From the NCBI RefSeq assembly GCF_000014785.1, contig NC_008340.1:840001-872000 (forward strand): 32,000 bases of DNA. The letters are read 5' to 3'. The notes beneath the pieces were generated by a model, which saw only the letters and a list, made by a program, of their open reading frames with translations, was not told where the DNA came from and made no database searches. Positions 15,109 to 28,272 of this stretch are shown here, piece after piece. Position 1 is the stretch's first letter. Every line of letters begins with the position of its first letter. Source of the DNA: Alkalilimnicola ehrlichii MLHE-1 (GTDB lineage: Bacteria > Pseudomonadota > Gammaproteobacteria > Nitrococcales > Halorhodospiraceae). The position numbers and the translations under genes were made by a program.

Positions 15109-16101
15109 TCAAGCCCCGGGCTCGGGTTTTTGCGCGGCACCAAAGATGCGTTGGGCGAAGGCGACCCGAGCTGCGGGCGGGTAGAGCGTGTCGTCCTGCT
15201 GGCGGATGCGCTCGCGCTCATGGGCGTCGATGTGCGCCACCCGGGGCGCGAGCCCGCACCGGTTGGCCATCTGGATGGCCAGTCCGGGCCGGGCGTTCAG
15301 CTCCAGCAGCAGCGGCCCGCGGTGGCGGTCCAGCACCATGTCGGTGCCCAGGTAGCCCAGGCCACTCATCTCGTAGCAGCCGGCGGCCAGCTCCAACAGG
15401 CGGGTCCAGTCAGGGATCTGGAGCTCGTTGAGGCGGCGGCCGGTGTCGGGATGGTGGTGCACCGGTCGGTCGTATTGCACCGCCTGGGTGGCCCGGCCGC
15501 TGGCCAGGTCCAGGCCGACGCCGATGGCCCCCTGGTGCAGGTTGGCCTTGCCGTCGGAGGCGTGGGTGGACAGCCGCATCATGGCCATCAGCGGATAGCC
15601 CCGGTAGACCACCACCCGGATGTCCGGCACCCCCTCGAAGGTGAAGGACTCGAAGTGTTCATCGAACTCGATCAGCGCCTCGATCATCGCCACGTCCGGG
15701 CTGCCGCCCAGGGTGTAAAGCCCCGAGAGCAGATTGGAGAGGTAGCGCACCACATCGCGCCGGCTCACCCAGAGCCCGCTGCCCTTGCGGAACCAGCCGT
15801 CCTTGTGTTCCAGGATGACCAGGATGCCCTTGCCGCCGCTGCCCCGGGAGGGCTTGATGGCGAAGCCCCGGCCAGGCTGGATGATGGACTCCAGCCGGCG
15901 AATCTCACCCTGGCTGTGGATCACCCCCAGCAGTTCGGGACTGGCGATACCGTACTTGCGCGCCAGCAGCTTGGTCTTCAGCTTGTCATCCACCAGCGGG
16001 AATCGCTCGCGGGGATTGTGCCGGTTGATGAGGCTGAGATTGCGCTCGTTCAGCCCCACGATACCCTGCTCGCGCAGGCGCCTGGCCCAGCGCAGCAGCA
16101 T
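15109..16101 (-). CDS. RimK-related ATP-grasp ligase (alpha-L-glutamate-ligase-like protein)
   Basis: From ORF 15109..16146. I prefer the start at ATG 16099-16101 (MLLRWARRLREQGIVGLNERN), which forms an ATGA overlap with the stop of the upstream gene. ATP-grasp motifs are present (FAIKPSRGSGGKGILVI; LGYLGTDMVLD...GPLLLELNARPGL). Confidence 0.85.
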   Translation of the reverse strand: MLLRWARRLREQGIVGLNERNLSLINRHNPRERFPLVDDKLKTKLLARKYGIASPELLGVIHSQGEIRRLESIIQPGRGFAIKPSRGSGGKGILVILEHKDGWFRKGSGLWVSRRDVVRYLSNLLSGLYTLGGSPDVAMIEALIEFDEHFESFTFEGVPDIRVVVYRGYPLMAMMRLSTHASDGKANLHQGAIGVGLDLASGRATQAVQYDRPVHHHPDTGRRLNELQIPDWTRLLELAAGCYEMSGLGYLGTDMVLDRHRGPLLLELNARPGLAIQMANRCGLAPRVAHIDAHERERIRQQDDTLYPPAARVAFAQRIFGAAQKPEPGA

Positions 16102-17621
16102 CAGGTGCGGCCCCCGGCCGGTGTCAGGAAGGGGCGGAAACGCCACAGCTCCAGCAGCCGGTACCCGGTGTAGCTGCCCAGCAGTACGATGCCGGCCAGC
16201 ACCACCAGCTGCAGCCCAAGGAAGTTGAACATCAGGTGCTGAACCCAGCCCAGCTGCATCAGCCAGAAGGCGGCGATCGCGGTGATCAGACTGCCTGCCC
16301 CCTGCTTGAAGACATCCCGCGGGCCCTCCTCCTCCCAGAGGATGGACATGCGCTCAATGGTCCAGGCCAGGATGATCATCGGAAACAGGGCCACCTTGAG
16401 CCCCGAGGTGAAGCCCAGGTGGAAGCTCAGCACCGAGAGCAGTGAGATCAACCCGATGACGCAGACAATGACCACGGAGACGCGGGCCACCAGCAGCAGG
16501 TTGAGGTGGGCCATCGCTTGGCGCATCAGCAGGCCGCCCCCCACCACCAACAGGAAGGTGATCAGACCCGGCAGCAGGTTCATCTCCAGAAAGGCGAGGG
16601 CGATGAGCACTGGCATGAAGGTGCCGGAGGTCTCCAGCCCCACCACGACGCGGAAGAAGACCACCACCAGCGCACCCAGCGGCAGCAGCAGGATGCTTTG
16701 AAAGATGGCCTGCTCGGACAGCGGCAGGCTGTGGATGGAGAGGTTGAACACCGCATCGGTTACCGTACCCTGCTCCCCCAGACCGGCGGCGGACTGCCGG
16801 GTCTCCAGCATGGAGAAGGTCACCCGCGAGTTGCGCCCGCCCTCCACCACCAGCACCGGGCCCCCCGCCTGCTCCCAGAGCAGTACTTCCTCGTCCTGCA
16901 CCTCCGTGCCCCCCTTGGGGTCAAACAGCCGCCAGGCGTCGCCCTCGAAGACCTGGACAAAGGGTTGCAGCGACTGCCGGCGGCGACCGTCCTCCAGGAC
17001 CAGGCCGTGGACGGTGCGGGCCGGCACCTCCGCCTGATTGAGCAGGCGGACCAGGGTGGTGCTGGGGGGGTATTCACTGAGTAGCAGCTGGGCATTCTGA
17101 TTGTCGGCATCGGCCAGGCGGCGGACGAGGGCCCGGGCCAGGCTGAAGCCGTCGGCGGACTGCAGGTAGGCATTCCGCAGGACCTGAGCGGAGGCCACCT
17201 GCAGAGACGGGCTCCAAGCGATGCGCCGGATCTCCGGTGGGTGGCCCACGTGGCGCGAGCCCAGGGTCGGGTCGACCTGGAACTGCGCCCGGTAGTACAG
17301 CACCTGCGGCCCGACCGCCTCGCGGGTGGTCCACTCGGCGTGCCGGTGGCCATTATCGACGAAGCTCAGGCCGTAGCCGGGGGAGGCCGTGTGCTCGGCG
17401 ACGCGCTTGAAACCCGGCGCATCGCCGGGCACGGCCAGCCGGACGCGTACGGGGTCGCCGCTGGCGTCCAGCCGCACGGTGGCCTCGATATCCCAGAGCG
17501 TGTCAGTGGCGCCGGGGAACCAGGGGACGCCGTGTTCCAGGTGGCGGTGGACACTGTGGGCGATGCCCACCAGGATCAGCACCGCGGCGATCCAGAACAG
17601 CGAACTTCGGGCTAGTTTCAT
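16101..17621 (-). CDS. Inactive-transglutaminase-like extracytoplasmic domain fused to a 7-TM module
   Basis: 506 aa. An N-terminal anchor helix (SLFWIAAVLILVGIA) is followed by a soluble region of roughly 280-300 aa. That region contains no cysteine at all, so it has no transglutaminase nucleophile. A C-terminal block of about 7 hydrophobic helices follows. The architecture and neighbours match the family usually annotated as 'inactive transglutaminase fused to 7 TM helices'. Confidence 0.8.
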   Translation of the reverse strand: MKLARSSLFWIAAVLILVGIAHSVHRHLEHGVPWFPGATDTLWDIEATVRLDASGDPVRVRLAVPGDAPGFKRVAEHTASPGYGLSFVDNGHRHAEWTTREAVGPQVLYYRAQFQVDPTLGSRHVGHPPEIRRIAWSPSLQVASAQVLRNAYLQSADGFSLARALVRRLADADNQNAQLLLSEYPPSTTLVRLLNQAEVPARTVHGLVLEDGRRRQSLQPFVQVFEGDAWRLFDPKGGTEVQDEEVLLWEQAGGPVLVVEGGRNSRVTFSMLETRQSAAGLGEQGTVTDAVFNLSIHSLPLSEQAIFQSILLLPLGALVVVFFRVVVGLETSGTFMPVLIALAFLEMNLLPGLITFLLVVGGGLLMRQAMAHLNLLLVARVSVVIVCVIGLISLLSVLSFHLGFTSGLKVALFPMIILAWTIERMSILWEEEGPRDVFKQGAGSLITAIAAFWLMQLGWVQHLMFNFLGLQLVVLAGIVLLGSYTGYRLLELWRFRPFLTPAGGRT

Positions 17622-17631
17622 GGGCCGGGGG

Positions 17632-18432
17632 TCAGTCGTCCTCGGGGCGTGGGTGGAGGTAGGTCTCCGCCACGTCGATCACGGCGATGTCCATCAGCAG
17701 GTCCCGGCCCACCAGGGTGGCGTAGGTCAGGTGCCCGCGGTCGGACAGCGTGAAGCGAGCCTCATCCTCAATGGGGCCCAGCCGCACCGGCAGGCGCACC
17801 ACCAGGCGTTCCTCCCGGCCAGCGGCCTGCCGTATGGTGATACGACTGTCCAAGGGGGCCTCGAGTTCAACCTCGCGGTTGTCCTCCTCGTCATCGTCGC
17901 CGGGCCGGCCCGGCGGGTAGCTCACGGTGAAGCGCACCCAGGTCTCACCGTCGCGCTCGAACTCGCTGATACCGGTGGCGTTGAGCGACGAGCTGGCGGC
18001 CCCGGAATCCACCCGGGCGGCGATCACCATGCCGTGCTCGGGGAAGGCGAGCCACTCGACGGCGCCCAGGACCACCTTGCCCTCCAGGTCGTCCTCGCGG
18101 TCGCCAGAGGGTTGGGTCTGGGCCAGCGGCAGGGGGGAGGGGGTTCCCGTGCCTCGGGCCTCCAGGTCGGTCAGGCGCTGGTCAATGCTGCCGAGGCCTT
18201 CGCCGAGGGCGCTCAACTGCTGTTGCTGGCGGTTCAGGCTGGCGCCCAGGGTGTCCAGGGCCTCCAGCAGTGCCTCGGTCTGGGCGGTTTGCTGCTGCTC
18301 GAAGGCCGAGACGGAGAGTTGCTCCTCCTGGGGGAGGGTCTGGCACCCCGCCAGCAGGCCCAGTACGGCCAGCATGGCCAGCGCGGGCCGGCGCGGGACG
18401 GTTCCCTGTCTGCGCTCGGGTCTTGGGGTCAT
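17632..18432 (-). CDS. Lipoprotein with C-terminal retropepsin-like ('ATP-dependent zinc protease', DUF785-type) aspartic protease domain
   Basis: From ORF 17632..18615. I prefer the start at ATG 18430-18432, with GGAG 8 nt upstream. This gives MTPRPERRQGTVPRRPALAMLAVLGLLAGC, a lipobox L-A-G-C. A Gln/Leu-rich linker follows, then a domain with the retropepsin signature ARVDSGAASSSL (D-S-G-A) and LVGRDLL near the C-terminus. Confidence 0.8.
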   Translation of the reverse strand: MTPRPERRQGTVPRRPALAMLAVLGLLAGCQTLPQEEQLSVSAFEQQQTAQTEALLEALDTLGASLNRQQQQLSALGEGLGSIDQRLTDLEARGTGTPSPLPLAQTQPSGDREDDLEGKVVLGAVEWLAFPEHGMVIAARVDSGAASSSLNATGISEFERDGETWVRFTVSYPPGRPGDDDEEDNREVELEAPLDSRITIRQAAGREERLVVRLPVRLGPIEDEARFTLSDRGHLTYATLVGRDLLMDIAVIDVAETYLHPRPEDD

Positions 18433-18648
18433 AGTCGCACTCCGTTGCTTTGTTCGCGTTCGAAGTATCATGCGGTGGATTGTACGTGGTTTTCGCCCGG
18501 CGTTGACCCGTCTGCACTCACTCCCCCATGAAACAGAGAGGTCCGCGAGGGGCGTGTTTCGCCTCCGGGCTGTTAAAGTGGCGCCTGAGCCCACGCCGGC
18601 TGCTCGCGGGGGCATCGCGCCGCCATTATATTGCCCGGGAGATCATCA

Positions 18649-19374
18649 ATGACCTATTGCCTCGCTGCATCCCTCAAGGCGGGCCTGGTCTTCGCCGCCG
18701 ATACCCGCACCAACGCCGGCCTGGATCATGTGAATAGCTTCCGTAAGATGCACAGCCTTGTCTGGGAAGGGGACCGGGTACTGGTGTTGCTCAGCGCTGG
18801 CAACCTGGCGACCACGCAGGCTGTGGTAACCCACCTGCAGCGCGAGGCCGAGAGCGGGGGGCCGTTGAGTGAGGTCCGGCACCTGAGTGACGCCGCCGAT
18901 CACGTGGGCCAGGTCAGTTTGCAGGTCCAGCGTAAATACCGCGCTGCCGAGGATATGAGTGCCGTATCGCTGGAGGCTACCTTTATCCTGGGCGGGCAGA
19001 TCGGTGACGAGCCCACGGGGGCGTTCCTCATCTATCCGCAGGGCAATTTCATCACCTGCTCCGAGGAGCAGCCCTTCCTGCAGATCGGCGAGACCAAGTA
19101 CGGCAAACCAATCCTGGACCGTATTATCGAGCCGGGGTTGAGCCTGGAGGATGCCGCGCGCTGCGCCCTGGTCTCTATCGACTCGACCATGCGCTCCAAC
19201 CTGTCGGTGGGCCCACCCGTCGATCTGGCCATCTATCCGGCGGGCGCGCTCCAGCGCCCCCGTATGCTGCGCTACAAGCACAACTCGCCCTATTTTGCCT
19301 CCGTCCGCAAGCACTGGGGCGAGGGGCTGCGCCGTCTCTTTGACGACCTGCCGCGGTTCGATTGGGAGGGCTGA
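18649..19374 (+). CDS. Anbu-type proteasome-like Ntn peptidase (ancestral beta subunit)
   Basis: From ORF 18631..19374. The start is at ATG 18649, giving MTYCLAASLKAGLVFAADTRTNAGLDHVNSFRKM. Thr immediately follows Met and would be the N-terminal nucleophile after Met removal. Asp17 and Lys32 (mature numbering) sit at proteasome-beta catalytic positions. The length of 241 aa is typical of Anbu. Confidence 0.85.
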   Translation: MTYCLAASLKAGLVFAADTRTNAGLDHVNSFRKMHSLVWEGDRVLVLLSAGNLATTQAVVTHLQREAESGGPLSEVRHLSDAADHVGQVSLQVQRKYRAAEDMSAVSLEATFILGGQIGDEPTGAFLIYPQGNFITCSEEQPFLQIGETKYGKPILDRIIEPGLSLEDAARCALVSIDSTMRSNLSVGPPVDLAIYPAGALQRPRMLRYKHNSPYFASVRKHWGEGLRRLFDDLPRFDWEG

Positions 19375-19396
19375 CCGGGTCGGGCGCGGGTCAGCC
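19369..19396. terminator. Hairpin spanning both convergent stop codons (possible bidirectional terminator)
   Basis: GGCTGACC (19369-19376) and GGTCAGCC (19389-19396) form an 8-bp stem with a 12-nt loop. No U-tract is present on either side, so the call is weak. Confidence 0.25.
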
Positions 19397-20449
19397 CCCC
19401 GGGGGGCGCCGTTCGCCGGTGACCACCGCGTGAACCTCCCGGTGCACGGCCTCGAGTTTCTCGGCGACGGTGGGTGTGATCGTGAAGGGATACATGTCCG
19501 GTGACCCCATGCTCCGGCTCATGCTGTTCATTGCCATGGTCAGTTTGACCCAGGCGTTGAGCAGATACTGGAAGTCATCCCGGTCGGCGAAACTGACGGC
19601 CTTGCCCTCGTCCTCCAGGACCAGTCCGAGCCCTTCGGCGGTCTCCAGCGCGTCCCGCATGTGCAGGTAGTGGGCCCAGGTCTCTGCCCAGTCCTCCCAG
19701 GGGTGGCTGCTGGCGTACCGGCTGATGTGCTGTTCCTGCCAGTACCGGTTCGGCTGGTTGTAATGCTGCCTCAGCGCCTGTCCGTAGTCCTGGCGCTCGT
19801 CGCCGAACACGGCGCGGAAGGTGGGTTGCCGACCGGTGTCGGCAAAGAACCGCTCCCAGAAATAGTGCCCGCTCTCATGGCGGAAGTGACCGAGCAGGGT
19901 CCGGTAGGGCTCGCCCAGCTTCTCCCGCACCGCCTCCCGCCGTACCGGGTCGGCCTCGCCGATATTGATGGTGATCAGCCCGTTGGTGTGACCGGTGGAG
20001 ACGGACTGTCCCTCGATCGGATCGGCGAGAAAGGCGAAGGCCAGGCCGGAGGGGTCTCGAGGGGTTCGGCCGTGGATCGGCAGGCCGATGTGCAGCAACT
20101 GGTAGATCAGGCGGCGTTTGGCCGCCTCCAGCTTGCCCCAGCGTTGCCAGTTTACGGGCACCGAGAGGTCCGGGATGACATGGTTCAGCCGGCAGGCCAG
20201 GCAGTGCGGGTTGGGGTCCTCCGCCGGCACCATCCAGTTGCACACCCCCGAGTGCTCGTAGTGCGCGCACTGGCGGTAGCGGCGCTGGCCGGCCTCGGGA
20301 TTCAGCGCCGTCCAGAGGCCGTCCCGGTCCTGGCGCAGTGCGGAGACGGTGAGCCGATCGGGCAGGAAACCCAACTGATGGTGGCAGTTGAGGCAGTAGG
20401 TGTTGTCAAAGTACAGGTGGTTGCCGCACTGGCACTGGAAGCGTCTCAT
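19391..20449 (-). CDS. Zinc-ribbon domain fused to a putative HExxH zinc metallopeptidase
   Basis: From ORF 19391..20965. The real start is ATG 20447-20449 (MRRFQCQCGNHLYFDNTYCLNCHHQLGF), which overlaps the alpha-E stop as ATGA. The N-terminal Cys-rich ribbon has CxC...CxxC and further Cys/His residues. The central motif FRHESGHYFWERFF contains HExxH. 352 aa. Confidence 0.8.
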   Translation of the reverse strand: MRRFQCQCGNHLYFDNTYCLNCHHQLGFLPDRLTVSALRQDRDGLWTALNPEAGQRRYRQCAHYEHSGVCNWMVPAEDPNPHCLACRLNHVIPDLSVPVNWQRWGKLEAAKRRLIYQLLHIGLPIHGRTPRDPSGLAFAFLADPIEGQSVSTGHTNGLITINIGEADPVRREAVREKLGEPYRTLLGHFRHESGHYFWERFFADTGRQPTFRAVFGDERQDYGQALRQHYNQPNRYWQEQHISRYASSHPWEDWAETWAHYLHMRDALETAEGLGLVLEDEGKAVSFADRDDFQYLLNAWVKLTMAMNSMSRSMGSPDMYPFTITPTVAEKLEAVHREVHAVVTGERRPPGG

Positions 20450-21381
20450 GGTGTGAACCGGAAGTAGGCGTGCACCACTTCGCCGTGCAGGTTCGCGAAC
20501 CCCTGCTGCAGACTGTCGATGAAATCGTGCATCTCCTGCGGGGACAACCCGGACAGGTTGGCGTCCGCCAGTACCGACTGCAGCTCGGTCAGACGGGCGA
20601 TGGGGCCCTCCCGGGCAGGGAGCTCCCCCAGGCACTGGCGTATTCGCGACAGGGCGAAGCCCACGGCGCGCGGGAAGCGTTCGCCCTGTAACAGGTAGTG
20701 CACCACGTCGCGACCGCGGACCAGCCCGTGGAGGTCTTGGCGATACATCTCGTAGGCGCTGAGCGAGCGCAGGACGCTGATCCAACAGACCGAGGAGTAG
20801 TAGGCATCGCCGTCGTCGCCATCCACCGGGAAGAGGCTGGCATAGCGGACGTCCAGTATCCGCGTCGTCATGTCGGCCCGCTCCAGGTAACGGCCGAGGG
20901 CGATGAACTGATACCGCGGCCCCCGGCTGACAGAGCCATGCAGCACGCCCTGTATCTGCTGGCACTGGGCCACGACGGCGGCCAGCAGATCATAGCGCCG
21001 GCGCCGGCTGGCGATGCCGGCCTCATGGGCCTGGACCAGGTGATGAAGCCCGTTGATGGCCTCCCAGGCCTCGCGGGGCAGAAGATCGCGGGTGACCCGG
21101 GCGTTCTCCCGGGCGCTGTGGGCGCTCGAGGCGATGGAGCCGGGGTAGCCGGTGTCGCTGATCAGAAAGCGCATGACGGTGGGCTCGTTCTCCGAGCCAT
21201 GCTCTGCCCGGTACGGCTCGCTGGCGCCGAGGATCTCCAATAGCGACTGCCAGCTCATGGGCATGCCGGCGGGCAGATCCATCTGGATCTGCGCCGAGGC
21301 CAGCAGCAGTCGCGCGGTGTCCTCGGTACGCTCCAGGTAGCGCGCCAGCCAATAGATGTTCTCGGCCAGTCTCGACAGCAT
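20446..21381 (-). CDS. Alpha-E domain protein (DUF403 family)
   Basis: 311 aa. The N-terminus MLSRLAENIYWLARYLERTEDTARLL is the hallmark of the alpha-E family. It is translationally coupled to both neighbours, with TGATG at 21379-21383 and ATGA at 20446-20449. Confidence 0.85.
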   Translation of the reverse strand: MLSRLAENIYWLARYLERTEDTARLLLASAQIQMDLPAGMPMSWQSLLEILGASEPYRAEHGSENEPTVMRFLISDTGYPGSIASSAHSARENARVTRDLLPREAWEAINGLHHLVQAHEAGIASRRRRYDLLAAVVAQCQQIQGVLHGSVSRGPRYQFIALGRYLERADMTTRILDVRYASLFPVDGDDGDAYYSSVCWISVLRSLSAYEMYRQDLHGLVRGRDVVHYLLQGERFPRAVGFALSRIRQCLGELPAREGPIARLTELQSVLADANLSGLSPQEMHDFIDSLQQGFANLHGEVVHAYFRFTP

Positions 21382-22850
21382 CAGCCCGCCACCCCGTTGG
21401 CCGTATCCTCCCCGGTATCCACCACCCAGGTGTCCTTGCTACCACCCCCCTGGGAGGAATTGACAATCAGTGAGCCCTTGCGCAGCGCCACCCGGCTGAG
21501 CCCGCCGGTGGTCACGTTGAAGCCCTTGCCCTGGAGCACGAACGGGCGCAGGTCCACGTGACGTGGTTCGATCTCCCCGGCGCAGAGGGTGGGGCAGGTG
21601 GAGAGGCTCAGGGTGGGTTGGGCGATGTAATTGCGGGGGTTGGCCCGGATGAGTTCGGCGAACTGGGCCCGTTCGTCGTCGGAGGCGTTGGGGCCGATGA
21701 GCATGCCGTAACCGCCCGATTCATTGGCCGGTTTGATGACCAGTTCGTGCAGGTGGTCGAGCACGTAGGCGCGGGCCTCGGGGTCGACGCACTGCCAGGT
21801 TGGGACGTTCGGCAGTATCGGTTCCTCGCCGAGAAAGTAGCGGATCAGGTCGGGTACATGGGCGTAGACCACCTTGTCGTCGGCCACGCCGGCGCCGGGG
21901 GCGTTGGCGATGGCCACGTGCCCCTTGCGCCAGGCGCGCAGCAGCCCCGGCACACCCAGCGTGGAGTCGGCGCGGAAGGCCTCCGGGTCGAGGAAGTCGT
22001 CATCGATCCGGCGGTAGATGACGTCCACCCGCTCCAGCCCGTGGATGGTGCGCATGTAGACGTGGTCGTCATCACTGACCACCAGGTCGCGCCCCTCCAC
22101 CAGCTCCGCCCCCATCTGCTGCGCCAGGTAGCTATGCTCAAAGTAGGCGGAGTTATAGATGCCCGGGGTCAGGACCACGATTTCCGGGTTGGGGGTGTCC
22201 GGTGCCAGCGAGGCGAGGGTGTCGAGCAACTGGCCCGGGTAGGCATCCACCGGCATGATCCGGTTGTGCTCGAACAGTTCGGGGAATATGCGTTTCATGA
22301 CATGCCGGTTCTCCAGCATGTAGGACACCCCCGAGGGCACGCGCAGGTTGTCCTCCAGAACGTAGAGGGTGCCGTCCTTGTCGCGCACTAGGTCGGTGCC
22401 GCAGACGTGGGCCCATACCCCGTGCGGCGGCGAGATGCCCCGGCATTGCGGCCGGAAGTCGCGGGACTGAAGCACCACGGACTCGGGCACCACGCCGTCG
22501 CGCAACGCCCGCTGGTCGTTGTAGATGTCGTTGATGAATAGATTCAGGGCGCGCAAACGTTGGAAGAGCCCGGCCTGGATGGTCGCCCACTCCTGGCGTT
22601 CGATGATCCGCGGTACGAAATCGAACGGCCAGGAGCGGTCGATGTTCTGGCCGTCAGAGTAGACAGTGAAGGTGATACCCATCGCCCGGATGGTGGCATC
22701 CGCGGCCTGGTGGCGGTCCGCCAGTTCCTCCACCGACAGTGACTTGAGGTACTCGAGCAGGTGCCCGCAGCCGGGCCGGGGCTGACCACTGGCATCCACC
22801 AGTTCGTCGTAGTATCCGTTGCCGGGCCGGTAGCCGTTCCATCGCTGCAT
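21381..22850 (-). CDS. Circularly permuted type-2 ATP-grasp protein (DUF404/DUF407 family)
   Basis: From ORF 21381..22970. I prefer the start at ATG 22848-22850 (MQRWNGYRPGNGYYDELVD), with GGAGG about 9 nt upstream, giving 489 aa. Family-typical segments are present (RAMGITFTVYSD...DRSWPFDFVPRII; VIKPANESGGYGMLIGP; VNSSQGGGSKDTWV). Confidence 0.85.
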   Translation of the reverse strand: MQRWNGYRPGNGYYDELVDASGQPRPGCGHLLEYLKSLSVEELADRHQAADATIRAMGITFTVYSDGQNIDRSWPFDFVPRIIERQEWATIQAGLFQRLRALNLFINDIYNDQRALRDGVVPESVVLQSRDFRPQCRGISPPHGVWAHVCGTDLVRDKDGTLYVLEDNLRVPSGVSYMLENRHVMKRIFPELFEHNRIMPVDAYPGQLLDTLASLAPDTPNPEIVVLTPGIYNSAYFEHSYLAQQMGAELVEGRDLVVSDDDHVYMRTIHGLERVDVIYRRIDDDFLDPEAFRADSTLGVPGLLRAWRKGHVAIANAPGAGVADDKVVYAHVPDLIRYFLGEEPILPNVPTWQCVDPEARAYVLDHLHELVIKPANESGGYGMLIGPNASDDERAQFAELIRANPRNYIAQPTLSLSTCPTLCAGEIEPRHVDLRPFVLQGKGFNVTTGGLSRVALRKGSLIVNSSQGGGSKDTWVVDTGEDTANGVAG

Positions 22851-22998
22851 GTGCGGGCGCCTCCAGGGGGCCGGTGCCCCGAACAGGACGCCAACGCGCG
22901 TTGCCGGGGCTGCAGGCCCTGTTGCCATCGGCCTGAGTATAGGCCAGTCTTGTGTTTTGCAGTGCAACACAGGGTGGCGGGCTTTGCAACTCCCCGGC

Positions 22999-23013
22999 TG
23001 GCACGCGCATTGC
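22999..23013 (+). promoter_or_regulatory. Candidate sigma54 (-24/-12) promoter upstream of the transglutaminase gene
   Basis: TGGCAC-GCGCA-TTGC matches the TGGCAC-N5-TTGC core exactly. It is on the plus strand, with the -12 GC about 37 nt upstream of ATG 23050. Confidence 0.4.
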
Positions 23014-23049
23014 GCGCAGCCCCGCGCCTACGAACCAGGAGATTCGAGA

Positions 23050-23850
23050 ATGTGGCTACGCACGGCTTGCGAGATCCAGTTTCACGAGAGCGTGCCCGCT
23101 CCCTTCGTCCTGATGCTCCGCCCGCGAAGCGGCAAGCATCAATGGGTCGGGCGTGAGACCTATGTGCTGCAGCCCAACGTGCCGGCGGTGGAGTACACGG
23201 ATGCCTACGGCAATCTCTGCCAGCGGCTGGTCTCCCCGCCCGGGGCGTTCCTGATCCGCACCTCGGCGGATGTCTATGTGCCCGACCAGGGTGCTGATGC
23301 CACGGGGGCGCCCTTCGTCGAGGTGCAGGACCTGCCCGATGACGCGCTGACCTACCTCTTGCCCAGCCGTTACTGCGAGTCGGACCGTTTTCTGGACATG
23401 GCCTGGTCCATCGTGGGTGACGCGCACCCCGGCTACGACCAGGTGGCGCGGATAGAGGCGTGGATCCGCGAGCATGTCCACTTCAACCCGGACTCACCCC
23501 ACTTTCAGTTGTCCGCCGTGGAGCTGAACCAGGCGCGGGAGGGCGTATGCCGGGAATTCGCCCACCTGGGCATCGCGCTCTGCCGGGCGCTGTGCGTCCC
23601 CGCGCGGATGGCGGTGGGTTACCTGCACGGGCTCCAGCCCATGGATTTTCACGCCTGGTTCGAGGCCTATGTCGGCGGCCGCTGGTGCGTGTTCGACGCC
23701 ACCCAGCCCCCGGGGCGTCGTGGCCGGGTGACCGTGGCCTACGGGCGGGATGCGGCCGATGTCGCCATCTACAACCAGTTCGGCCCGCCGATGTACCCGA
23801 CGCGGATCAGCGTCACGGTGGATCGCCTGGAGGGGCCGCCTGCGGTGTGA
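23050..23850 (+). CDS. Transglutaminase-family protein with intact Cys-His-Asp triad
   Basis: From ORF 22849..23850. The start is at ATG 23050 (MWLRTACEIQF), with AGGAG 8 nt upstream. The core motifs are REGVCREFAHLGIALCRAL (nucleophile Cys), MDFHAWFEAYV (His) and WCVFDATQ (Asp). The N-terminal beta-rich region is typical of bacterial transglutaminase N-domains. Confidence 0.85.
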   Translation: MWLRTACEIQFHESVPAPFVLMLRPRSGKHQWVGRETYVLQPNVPAVEYTDAYGNLCQRLVSPPGAFLIRTSADVYVPDQGADATGAPFVEVQDLPDDALTYLLPSRYCESDRFLDMAWSIVGDAHPGYDQVARIEAWIREHVHFNPDSPHFQLSAVELNQAREGVCREFAHLGIALCRALCVPARMAVGYLHGLQPMDFHAWFEAYVGGRWCVFDATQPPGRRGRVTVAYGRDAADVAIYNQFGPPMYPTRISVTVDRLEGPPAV

Positions 23851-23852
23851 TT

Positions 23853-24323
23853 CTAAAACTCGACGGTGGCCGTGATGGTGTCGTCGTAGACACCGGCTGC
23901 CACATTCTGGTCGGCGAACACCCGTCCGTAGACCGGGTAATACCGGGTCACGGTCAGCACCCCCAGCGTATAACTATCGGTCACCGTCGCCGTATCGTCG
24001 GTGCCGTCGCCCCAGATCTCGGTGCGGGCAGTATCTACATAGAGGTTGTAGTCCAGGGTGTCGGTCGCGCTGCTCAGCGCGCGGGGGTGGTAGCTGCCCC
24101 CGGTGCCGGGATCCAGGCTGATCTCGTATGACACCAGCAGGCTCACCAACCCCAGCAGACTGCAACTGACGCTGACCTCGCTGGCCCCATCCACCTGGGC
24201 CCCGGTGATCGGGTCGTATTGGCCGAAGGCCAGCGGGTCGGCGCTGATAGAGCAAGTATAGGCCTGGGCCGATCCGGACCCGGCGGCGACGAGGAACAGG
24301 GAAAGCCCGATAGCTCGCTTCAT
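23853..24323 (-). CDS. SCPU (spore coat protein U) domain pilus subunit, distal gene
   Basis: From ORF 23853..24407. The start is at ATG 24321-24323 (MKRAIGLSLFLVAAGSGSAQA/YTCSISADPLAFGQYDP), forming an ATGA overlap with the usher stop. It has a signal peptide, a conserved Cys pair (TCSI...VSCS) and a C-terminal ...ITATVEF beta strand. Confidence 0.8.
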   Translation of the reverse strand: MKRAIGLSLFLVAAGSGSAQAYTCSISADPLAFGQYDPITGAQVDGASEVSVSCSLLGLVSLLVSYEISLDPGTGGSYHPRALSSATDTLDYNLYVDTARTEIWGDGTDDTATVTDSYTLGVLTVTRYYPVYGRVFADQNVAAGVYDDTITATVEF

Positions 24324-27483: not shown

Positions 27484-27975
27484 TTACCATTTAACCGTGA
27501 CTTCGATCGTGTCTACGTAGTTACCGACCGCTACGCTCTGTTCGGCGAAGATGCGCCCATAGACAACGTAGGATTGTTCAGAGCCAGTGCCGGACAGGCC
27601 GGTGAGCTCGGCGCCGGAGTCGATGTCGCCCCAGCTGGTCCCTCCGTGGTTGTCATGGTAGAGGTCGTATTCCAGGAAATCGGACTCGTCCGCAAGGGCC
27701 ATGCGGCGTTCGCCCTCCGCGCCGGTATTATCCCCGTCATCCAGCCCGATGTCGTAGGGCGTGTCGCTGGTGCATTGCACGCGGATCTCGCTGTTCTCGT
27801 CGAGAGGGGTATCCGAGAAGGGGTCGTAGGTGCCGAACACCAGGTTGTCGGCATCCACCGTACAGGTTGGGTCCACCGTAGCAGTGACGTCGAAGGTGGC
27901 GGTGTCGGTTTGGGCCACGGCGGTCATGGAGGCGGGGTACAGCGCCGCGAGGGCGAGCAGCAGGCGGAATTTCAT
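27484..27975 (-). CDS. SCPU-domain major pilus subunit (first gene of operon)
   Basis: From ORF 27484..28005. The start is at ATG 27973-27975 (MKFRLLLALAALYPASMTAVA/QTDTATFDVTATVDPTCTVDADNLVFGTYDP). It has the SCPU hallmarks C-x-V...FG-x-YDP and IRVQCT, and a C-terminal DTIEVTVKW. Confidence 0.85.
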   Translation of the reverse strand: MKFRLLLALAALYPASMTAVAQTDTATFDVTATVDPTCTVDADNLVFGTYDPFSDTPLDENSEIRVQCTSDTPYDIGLDDGDNTGAEGERRMALADESDFLEYDLYHDNHGGTSWGDIDSGAELTGLSGTGSEQSYVVYGRIFAEQSVAVGNYVDTIEVTVKW

Positions 27976-28272
27976 GACGGGTGGATCCCTCTTCGGCTGA
28001 ATCAAGGTCGGTATTTGATAACCGTTTCTCGATTATCAGTGCCTTATGCCAAGAATAGCACAGAGGTAGGGCGTCGACTGGGTCAACGTGCGGGCCGCTT
28101 CGTGTGTTTGCGCCAGCCAGGCCGCCTTGCCGGGTCGGCGCGGACCAGGCGGCTGCGGCATATCCCATGACGCCGTGGGATATGCCTGGGTTCTCCCGGC
28201 TTACCTGGGCCGCGTTGCACCACTGCCAGGCGCCATCGGGGTTCGCCTGGCAATGGAGGTGCCACGATGAGA

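Follow-up and report, generated by a model that had tools for sequence, protein, structure and literature searches.

The gene for a predicted double zinc-ribbon metallopeptidase, here called Mx, is a widespread and recurrent partner of systems built on a circularly permuted (CP) ATP-grasp amidoligase and an Alpha-E protein, with or without the proteasome-like peptidase Anbu and with or without a transglutaminase-like (TGase) protein. All five genes occur together at positions 18649-23850 of a 32,000-nucleotide stretch of Alkalilimnicola ehrlichii MLHE-1 (contig NC_008340.1, positions 840,001 to 872,000 of the forward strand; hereafter the window, in whose numbering positions are given). The locus is probably a chromosomal, lineage-specific layout of a CP-ATP-grasp/Alpha-E amide-ligation system, in which Mx would serve as a general, exchangeable "output peptidase." An earlier reading made from the DNA letters (the sequence-only reading) had taken it for a rearranged Anbu cassette carrying an extra peptidase. 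Many bacteria carry the cassette, which figures in discussions of how the proteasome arose and whose role has been unsolved since 2008. The wider interest of the locus lies in the recurrent association with a zinc-ribbon zincin, which is apparently new to the literature for CP-ATP-grasp/Alpha-E/Anbu modules, rather than in the rearrangement itself.

Linkage of Mx with the cassette genes

The neighborhoods of Mx were surveyed by tblastn with the window proteins in the best 80 of at least 574 species-level GTDB loci, and those of Anbu in the best 80 of at least 590 metagenome loci. Both surveys were ranked by similarity to the window proteins, and their frequencies describe relatives of the window locus, not the whole families. 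The metagenome contigs are short, and partners were detected by tblastn thresholds, under which a Ralstonia TGase with 28% identity was still found (E = 8e-11). Within 4 kb of Mx, a type-1 ATP-grasp (at least 50% identity) or Anbu was present in 14 of the 80 loci, and a paralogous ATP-grasp (33-40% identity) or TGase was near Mx in 10 of the 80. Counted over the 61 loci with sufficient flanks, 24 adjoin a CP-ATP-grasp cassette gene or Anbu; the flanks of the other 19 loci were too short to classify. Seen from the side of Anbu, 70 loci extend far enough downstream to be assessed, and in 20 of them Mx lies immediately downstream of Anbu and convergent with it. When at least 2 kb was available on both sides (39 Anbu loci), Mx was found in 12, TGase in 4, and the canonical co-directional order in 1.

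The linkage is preserved in at least four gene orders (arrowheads give the direction of transcription). The commonest order among the linked loci is <Alpha-E <ATP-grasp Anbu> <Mx. Mx> ATP-grasp> Alpha-E> is found in Marinobacter and Bermanella, and Anbu> <Mx ATP-grasp> Alpha-E> in locus L110. ATP-grasp> Alpha-E> Mx> occurs without Anbu (L009, L180, and L035), and Mx> <Anbu occurs with no ATP-grasp within 10 kb (Aquisalimonas and L030). In every examined locus with the order Alpha-E > Mx (the window, L008/L172, L009/L180, L083, L158, and L169), the two genes overlap in an ATGA, even though the Mx identities range from 40 to 81% and at least five Mx lineages are represented. In a rough neighbor-joining tree, which carries no support values, the cassette-linked Mx proteins form one large clade, the clade of the window, and a deep third clade, and the others are scattered among solitary copies. 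The chance that a random gene falls within 4 kb of one of 1-3 such ATP-grasp genes was roughly estimated at well below 1%. The recurrence in several orders, the retained ATGA overlap, and the terminal position of Mx in a paralogous cassette (described below) make a chance adjacency of Mx and the cassette very unlikely. The sequence-only reading was right to place an HExxH protein in the third operon slot, but this protein is a recurrent cassette partner and not a peculiarity of the locus.

One of the loci without Anbu, L035 (3022-6525; ATP-grasp > Alpha-E > Mx), is on a contig that was placed in a Candidatus Methanomethylophilaceae archaeon metagenome-assembled genome (MAG); either the binning is wrong or the genes entered an archaeon horizontally.

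Paralogous cassette without Anbu

Achromobacter marplatensis and an Acetobacteraceae MAG carry a co-directional operon that encodes, in this order, a TGase-DUF2126 amidoligase (~1150 amino acids), a CP ATP-grasp-Alpha-E fusion (~860 amino acids), TGase, and Mx. The terminal position, which is held by Anbu in the canonical operon, is held here by Mx, and in A. marplatensis the Mx gene overlaps the TGase gene by 4 nt. As in the window, ATP-grasp, Alpha-E, TGase, and Mx domains are combined, and Mx is coupled to the preceding gene. Unlike the window, the paralogous cassette has no Anbu, its ATP-grasp and Alpha-E form a single fusion protein and share only 33-40% and ~26% identity, respectively, with those of the window, and it has the extra giant amidoligase. 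The amidoligase, fusion, and TGase components are listed in the Pfam text of PF04174, which cites Iyer et al. 2009.

Properties of Mx

Mx matches two Pfam families, Zn_ribbon_DZR_6 (PF10005; 3e-32, 111.7 bits) and Peptidase_Mx (PF15887; 2e-101, 338.6 bits), both above the gathering score. The HExxH motif at residues 191-195 (H191, E192, and H195) is invariant among 67 homologues, as are all eight cysteines at positions 6, 8, 19, 22, 61, 70, 83, and 86. A further invariant block is HPWEDWAETWAH. The AlphaFold2 (AF2) model (predicted local distance difference test [pLDDT] 92.6; predicted template modeling score [pTM] 0.92) has a zinc-ribbon region rich in strands at its N terminus and, beyond it, a helical body resembling zincins. 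No signal peptide was apparent when the N terminus was read by eye.

The best Foldseek matches of the model, which are below significance, were 4l7a (probability 0.60) and then anthrax lethal factor. A profile search of the PDB with hmmsearch gave no significant match either, the best being 9urd (E = 0.064). Peptidase_Mx1, which comprises SusD-associated zinc metallohydrolase lipoproteins of Bacteroides (4l7a and 9urd), and the lethal factor/MtfA-like zincins share the HExxH zincin core with Mx. In contrast to Peptidase_Mx1, Mx is predicted to be cytoplasmic and has an N-terminal double zinc ribbon, and the similarity between them is below significance. An FFAS prediction that ties DUF2248 to anthrax lethal factor (PMC3650047) agrees with the Foldseek result. 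Our search of the literature on DUF2248, PF10005, and PF15887 turned up only a zincin survey without context analysis. No paper that ties the Mx family to Anbu or to CP ATP-grasp systems was found, and a mention in Iyer et al. 2009 is possible.

Genes of the window

The features of the locus are listed in Table 1. The analysis confirmed that all five genes are present, intact, and assigned to families by strong matches, and they are not chance open reading frames (ORFs). Pfam profiles and solved homologues bear out the five family assignments of the sequence-only reading, including the catalytic Thr2/Asp/Lys of Anbu and the Cys/His/Asp triad of TGase. The two translational couplings that it had described were also verified in the sequence: the ATP-grasp stop codon overlaps the Alpha-E start codon in TGATG at 21379-21383, and the Alpha-E stop codon overlaps the Mx start codon in ATGA at 20446-20449. 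The stop codons of the convergent Anbu and Mx genes are separated by 16 bp. The Mx, Anbu, and Alpha-E proteins of the window show 100% identity to those encoded by A. ehrlichii MLHE-1.

Table 1. Features of the locus in the window and of the paralogous cassette
Feature	Position	Strand	Remarks
Anbu (Anbu-1-type proteasome-like N-terminal nucleophile [Ntn] peptidase)	18649-19374	+	241 amino acids, starts MTYC
Mx (double zinc-ribbon + zincin-like HExxH metallopeptidase)	19391-20449	-	352 amino acids, operon gene 3
Alpha-E	20446-21381	-	311 amino acids; stop codon overlaps Mx start (ATGA)
CP ATP-grasp amidoligase	21381-22850	-	489 amino acids, operon gene 1
TGase (transglutaminase-like Cys/His/Asp protein)	23050-23850	+	266 amino acids from likely start ATG 23050
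Divergent promoter region ATP-grasp/TGase	22851-23049		199 bp
Convergent Anbu/Mx junction	19375-19407		16-bp spacer, then GC palindrome
Paralogous cassette	L089 2885-11086; L027 3018-11053		Achromobacter marplatensis; Acetobacteraceae MAG

Among the solved Anbu structures, the best phmmer match of the window Anbu was 5loy (1e-75), the Anbu-1 consensus design, followed by 5nyw (3e-64) and 5lox (2e-60), with all matches in the range of 1e-75 to 1e-55. The alignment is full length (query 2-240 against 5loy 1-240) and includes the C-terminal H5 extension. Thr2, which directly follows Met without a propeptide, is aligned with residue 1 of 5loy, 5nyw, and 5lox. Asp18 and Lys33 (17 and 32 in the mature protein) are at the catalytic positions and are invariant among 20 homologues. 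The S1 pocket is formed by T20, F30, S48, L52, and T55, which are conservative changes relative to the Anbu-1 pattern of T20, F30, T48, L52, and S55 (PMC5666114).

The CP ATP-grasp matches PF14403 (6e-173) and PF04174 (6e-148). The CP_ATPgrasp profile scored 575.5 bits against a cut-off of 32 and covered positions 1-374 of the 374 in the model, and the match to a solved structural genomics entry, 3n6x, had an E value of 2e-166. The start codon is preceded by a GGAGG (Shine-Dalgarno) 9 nt upstream. According to its Pfam text, the CP_ATPgrasp family includes inactive members. Alpha-E matches PF04168 (1e-83; 281.6 bits), and its two ER motifs, E17-R18 and E167-R168, are invariant among 59 homologues; its AF2 model is all-helical (pLDDT 91.8). 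TGase matches Transglut_core (PF01841; 1e-22) and the solved homologue 3isr (E = 1e-43). Cys167, His201, and Asp216 lie in the motifs GVCREF, DFHAWF, and VFDAT, and near-identical motifs are aligned in 3isr. We read these three residues as the papain-like triad of the TGase family. The likely TGase start, ATG 23050, is preceded by AGGAG, and the start that gives the maximal ORF is at 22849. The TGase N terminus, read by eye, has no apparent signal peptide.

Comparison with the canonical operon and close relatives

In the predominant Anbu operon, the genes for ATP-grasp, Alpha-E, TGase, and Anbu are co-directional (PMC6376114, PMC3235984, PMC5666114). This canonical order, COG2308 > COG2307 > COG1305 > Anbu, is found for example in P. 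aeruginosa (Anbu = PA1733), Y. bercovieri, and Ralstonia (Valas & Bourne 2008, PMC3235984; PMC6376114; PMC5666114). We confirmed it on a Ralstonia solanacearum megaplasmid record, where Mx is absent within 8 kb. The window and the canonical operon contain the same four families, and ATP-grasp and Alpha-E are tightly coupled in both; the window Anbu is of the Anbu-1 type. The ATP-grasp of the window is 56% identical to that of the Ralstonia operon, whereas the TGase is only 28% identical. The window does not conform to the canonical order, because its four families are distributed over three strand segments and Mx is inserted. The third operon slot is taken by Mx, TGase forms a divergent unit of its own, and Anbu is turned around so that it converges with Mx.

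The same five-gene layout is found in Alkalispirillum-like contigs (L008, L172, and L173), whose proteins are 81-90% identical and whose outer flanks are different. Among the surveyed loci, TGase and Mx are found together beside a type-1 cassette only in Alkalilimnicola and Alkalispirillum, and the exact five-gene arrangement was likewise found only there. These two have the fullest set of components, and the whole set fits in 5.2 kb. Other loci have the order Anbu> <Mx <Alpha-E <ATP-grasp without a detectable TGase (L182, L158, L169, and L170, and L083 with a 2-kb gap), although in L158 and L182 the contig end is too near ATP-grasp to judge the presence of TGase. The gene order of L158, L169, and L182 is identical to that of the window, including the ATGA overlap. 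Four-gene modules of Anbu, Mx, ATP-grasp, and Alpha-E, either in the order of these three loci or as <Alpha-E <ATP-grasp Anbu> <Mx (L015, L023, L036, L044, L046, L065, and L099-L136), occur in uncultured Gammaproteobacteria and one Nitrospirota MAG. Their type-1 ATP-grasp is 62-70% identical to that of the window, and Mx is convergent with Anbu. No TGase was detected in these modules, whereas the window and Alkalispirillum add a divergent one. PrkA/YeaH/SpoVR genes, seen 3' of Alpha-E in L015, were considered as conserved neighbors and rejected, as they are not conserved.

In most type-1 relatives, Mx stands in for TGase, and it accompanies both TGase and Anbu only in the clade of the window. 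This modular pattern suggests one ligase pair with exchangeable hydrolases. The description of the locus as rearranged is correct in the sense that it differs from the canonical co-directional four-gene operon. Since the canonical layout is present in only 1 of the 39 loci with the closest Anbu genes, the departure is a trait of the whole clade. The statement that the cassette is conserved and its function unsolved also stands, as the canonical operon is documented in published work and in Ralstonia, and no function was found in the literature searched.

In two relatives, an Aquisalimonadaceae MAG (L176, 5705-8723) and Natronocella (L174, 4690-8738), Anbu is 76-77% identical to that of the window and is split from ATP-grasp/Alpha-E. 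It adjoins a divergent pair of Amidoligase_2 (PF12224) and Peptidase_C26/GATase genes. An Amidoligase_2 and Peptidase_C26 pair was sought in the window and is absent there. The same Aquisalimonadaceae assembly has ATP-grasp-Alpha-E-Mx on another contig (L009).

Transcription units and intergenic elements

Three strand changes in the gene orientation imply at least three transcription units, as the sequence-only reading had proposed. Anbu and TGase are each monocistronic, since their flanking genes are on the opposite strand. A perfect sigma-54 consensus, TGGCACgcgcaTTGC (TGGCAC-N5-TTGC), is found at 22999-23013 (+), 36 nt before the TGase ATG; the 32-kb window contains just one more exact match. 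No sigma-54-like site was found in the upstream regions of ATP-grasp and Anbu in the window. For the earlier proposal of separately regulated parts, this site, which precedes TGase alone and is not conserved in Alkalispirillum, is no more than a hint. Within the otherwise diverged intergenic region, a block of ~40 nt (~22930-22971) is nearly identical in the Alkalispirillum-like loci. It contains TATAGG (TATACT on the minus strand) and the palindrome TTGCAgTGCAA (22957-22967), and is a candidate operator or promoter of the ATP-grasp operon.

In relatives, sigma-54-like sites precede ATP-grasp in ~10 of 35 related divergent loci, at 60-120 nt from the start, and two loci (L105 and L106) have an exact TGGCAC-N5-TTGC pointing toward ATP-grasp. 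These sites are consistent with NtrC/sigma-54 control in part of the cassette family. Moreover, ntrBC adjoins two Anbu paralogues on the megaplasmid of A. caldus. In P. putida, nitrogen limitation induces the Anbu operon (PMC3235984, PMC5666114), and the sigma-54 sites and ntrBC are hints in keeping with that induction. On the megaplasmid of Acidithiobacillus caldus (NZ_CP005987.1, 20262-36984; L178), the two Anbu paralogues are 56% and 47% identical to the window Anbu, flank insertion sequence elements, and adjoin glnL-ntrC. An 842-amino-acid transglutaminase-family gene, ATP-grasp, and Alpha-E follow, and Mx is absent.

At the convergent junction, a perfect 14-nt GC palindrome, GCCCCCCGGGGGGC, is located at 19394-19407 in the last codons of Mx, which belong to its nonconserved 3' end. 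This palindrome may form a bidirectional stem-loop. It lacks a U-tract and is not conserved in L008, and a terminator scan called no U-tract terminator at the junction. Scans of 18300-24000 for sigma-70 promoters and intrinsic terminators gave nothing above the shuffled expectation.

Proposed mechanism and alternatives

Here, we propose a mechanism by analogy with the chemistry of ATP-grasp enzymes and with the RimK/RimB ligase-protease pair. ATP-grasp enzymes work via an acyl-phosphate, and the ATP-grasp protein of the Yersinia operon frees orthophosphate from ATP (PMC6376114). In the locus of A. ehrlichii, the ligase pair of ATP-grasp and Alpha-E would be co-translated with Mx, a cytoplasmic zinc-ribbon zincin. 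ATP-grasp, the predicted ligase, would activate a carboxylate to an acyl-phosphate. Alpha-E may be a specificity or scaffold subunit, and the pair would form an amide or isopeptide bond on a protein or peptide. Mx, which is made together with Alpha-E through the ATGA overlap, may process the substrate or tag or reverse the modification. Anbu-1 and the papain-like transglutaminase-fold enzyme, as two further hydrolases in separate single-gene units, may degrade or trim the modified products. The "two proteolytic outputs" of the sequence-only reading are an undercount, as the papain-like TGase-like protein could be a third hydrolase. In relatives, such a system would be tied to nitrogen limitation.

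The best characterized working analogy is RimABK with the neighboring Rlo system, in which a RimK-type ATP-grasp glutamate ligase is accompanied by a retropepsin-like protease (PMC7343187, PMC11957791, PMC12239564). As proposed for the window, an amide ligase is encoded together with a dedicated counteracting or processing protease. The ATP-grasp subfamilies and the protease folds of the two systems are unrelated, however, and the target of RimK is RpsF.

Several results count against an amide-ligation system with Mx as its output peptidase. Anbu showed no peptidase activity in vitro and formed no stable complexes with its operon partners (PMC6376114). No substrate, product, or activity is reported for any of the cassette components. 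A fold search with the Alpha-E model returned only spurious matches to helical bundles and membrane proteins and gave no functional lead, and that with the Mx model against the PDB returned nothing below E = 1e-3, so that Mx can be described only as "zincin-like." The sigma-54 site of TGase was sought in the Alkalispirillum-like loci and is missing. The survey frequencies come from samples ranked by similarity to the window proteins. Finally, 37 of the 80 species-level loci have a solitary Mx, each flanked by 4 kb or more on both sides, so that Mx may have a function apart from the cassette; unlinked copies are found in Ectothiorhodospira, Pseudomonas, a Puniceicoccaceae MAG, another MAG, and the examined Ralstonia record.

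The solitary copies bear directly on the idea that Mx is a passenger with a housekeeping role of its own, whose place after Alpha-E is inherited synteny or a neutral rearrangement. This would also fit the Mx neighborhoods unrelated to the cassette in Ectothiorhodospira, Puniceicoccaceae, and the other MAG, and the situation in Ralstonia, where 135 megaplasmid records carry Mx but the examined record, with its canonical Anbu operon, has none within 8 kb. We regard it as distinctly improbable. The linkage spans several gene orders and extends to distant lineages of Mx (40-81% identity), the Mx and TGase genes of the paralogous cassette overlap, and Mx pairs with Anbu alone as well as with the ligase pair alone. 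The solitary copies of Pseudomonas and Ralstonia belong to taxa that have the cassette elsewhere: despite the unlinked Mx, a canonical Anbu operon is present in Ralstonia (checked) and in Pseudomonas (by literature). The Alpha-E/Mx coupling is conserved, the ATGA overlap being preserved in all examined Alpha-E > Mx loci, and this disfavors a passenger. An anti-phage defense or toxin-like conflict system with ligase and peptidase effectors is highly improbable. Ligase-plus-peptidase modules are known in conflict systems, but PADLOC gave no hits for any of the five proteins, and the neighborhood is a core chromosomal one (pheST, thrS, the Rlo system, and chaperone-usher pili); these two results disfavor defense. 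In addition, the base composition does not deviate obviously at the locus, the scanned flanking ORFs revealed no mobile-element genes, and the literature ties the operon to nitrogen limitation. The idea of defense is already weakly refuted.

The main rival is a small-molecule pathway, in which ATP-grasp/Alpha-E would make a free amide metabolite, such as a gamma-glutamyl or polyamine conjugate that stores nitrogen or protects against stress. Its recycling would fall to Mx, the TGase-like enzyme, and Anbu as amidohydrolases, and no protein would be tagged. Of the solved structures, 3n6x is the nearest homologue of the ATP-grasp, and its deposited name is that of a putative glutathionylspermidine synthase. 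Anbu does not act on peptide substrates of the proteasome, and there are other Ntn hydrolases that cut nonpeptide amides (PMC6376114). Nitrogen limitation induces the operon (PMC3235984), and Anbu adjoins the Amidoligase_2 and Peptidase_C26/GATase pair in two relatives. On the other hand, Anbu assembles into a large dodecameric split ring to which proteasome inhibitors bind (PMC5666114), which argues for polypeptide substrates. The double zinc ribbon of Mx is a module that would be expected in macromolecule binding, and three different peptidase-fold enzymes seem too many for one small amide. We consider a small-molecule pathway unlikely, if less so than a passenger gene.

We also put forward, tentatively, a more specific proposal that we judge doubtful. 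Mx may be an unrecognized core hydrolase of CP-ATP-grasp/Alpha-E systems, able to substitute for Anbu and the TGase-like enzyme or to complement them, and the conserved convergent Mx-Anbu pair may reflect a functional hand-off, for example with Mx processing or activating the substrate or tag of Anbu. If this is true, Mx, possibly together with Alpha-E, could be the ingredient missing from the failed activity assays of Anbu. In any case, Mx is a concrete fifth component for experimenters working on the cassette, and A. ehrlichii and Alkalispirillum are compact candidates for such work.

Genomic surroundings

Immediately upstream of Anbu and divergent from it, a second ligase/protease system is located at 15109-18615 (-). 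Its genes encode a RimK-related alpha-L-glutamate ligase-like protein (TIGR02291), an RloB-like inactive-transglutaminase seven-transmembrane (7TM) protein, and an RloA3/RimB-like retropepsin, which has an apparent lipobox (LLAGC) if read from an internal Met. This system matches the Rlo osmotic-stress system of P. aeruginosa (PMC12239564). Its adjacency to Anbu is not conserved, since the Alkalispirillum-like loci have different outer neighbors. Farther upstream are thrS and pheST, and SCPU (spore coat protein U-type) chaperone-usher pilus genes and a TonB-dependent receptor gene are downstream. The second exact TGGCAC-N5-TTGC of the window, at 28250-28264 (-), lies upstream of the SCPU pilin gene (27484-28005) of this chaperone-usher cluster and suggests a sigma-54-dependent pilus promoter.

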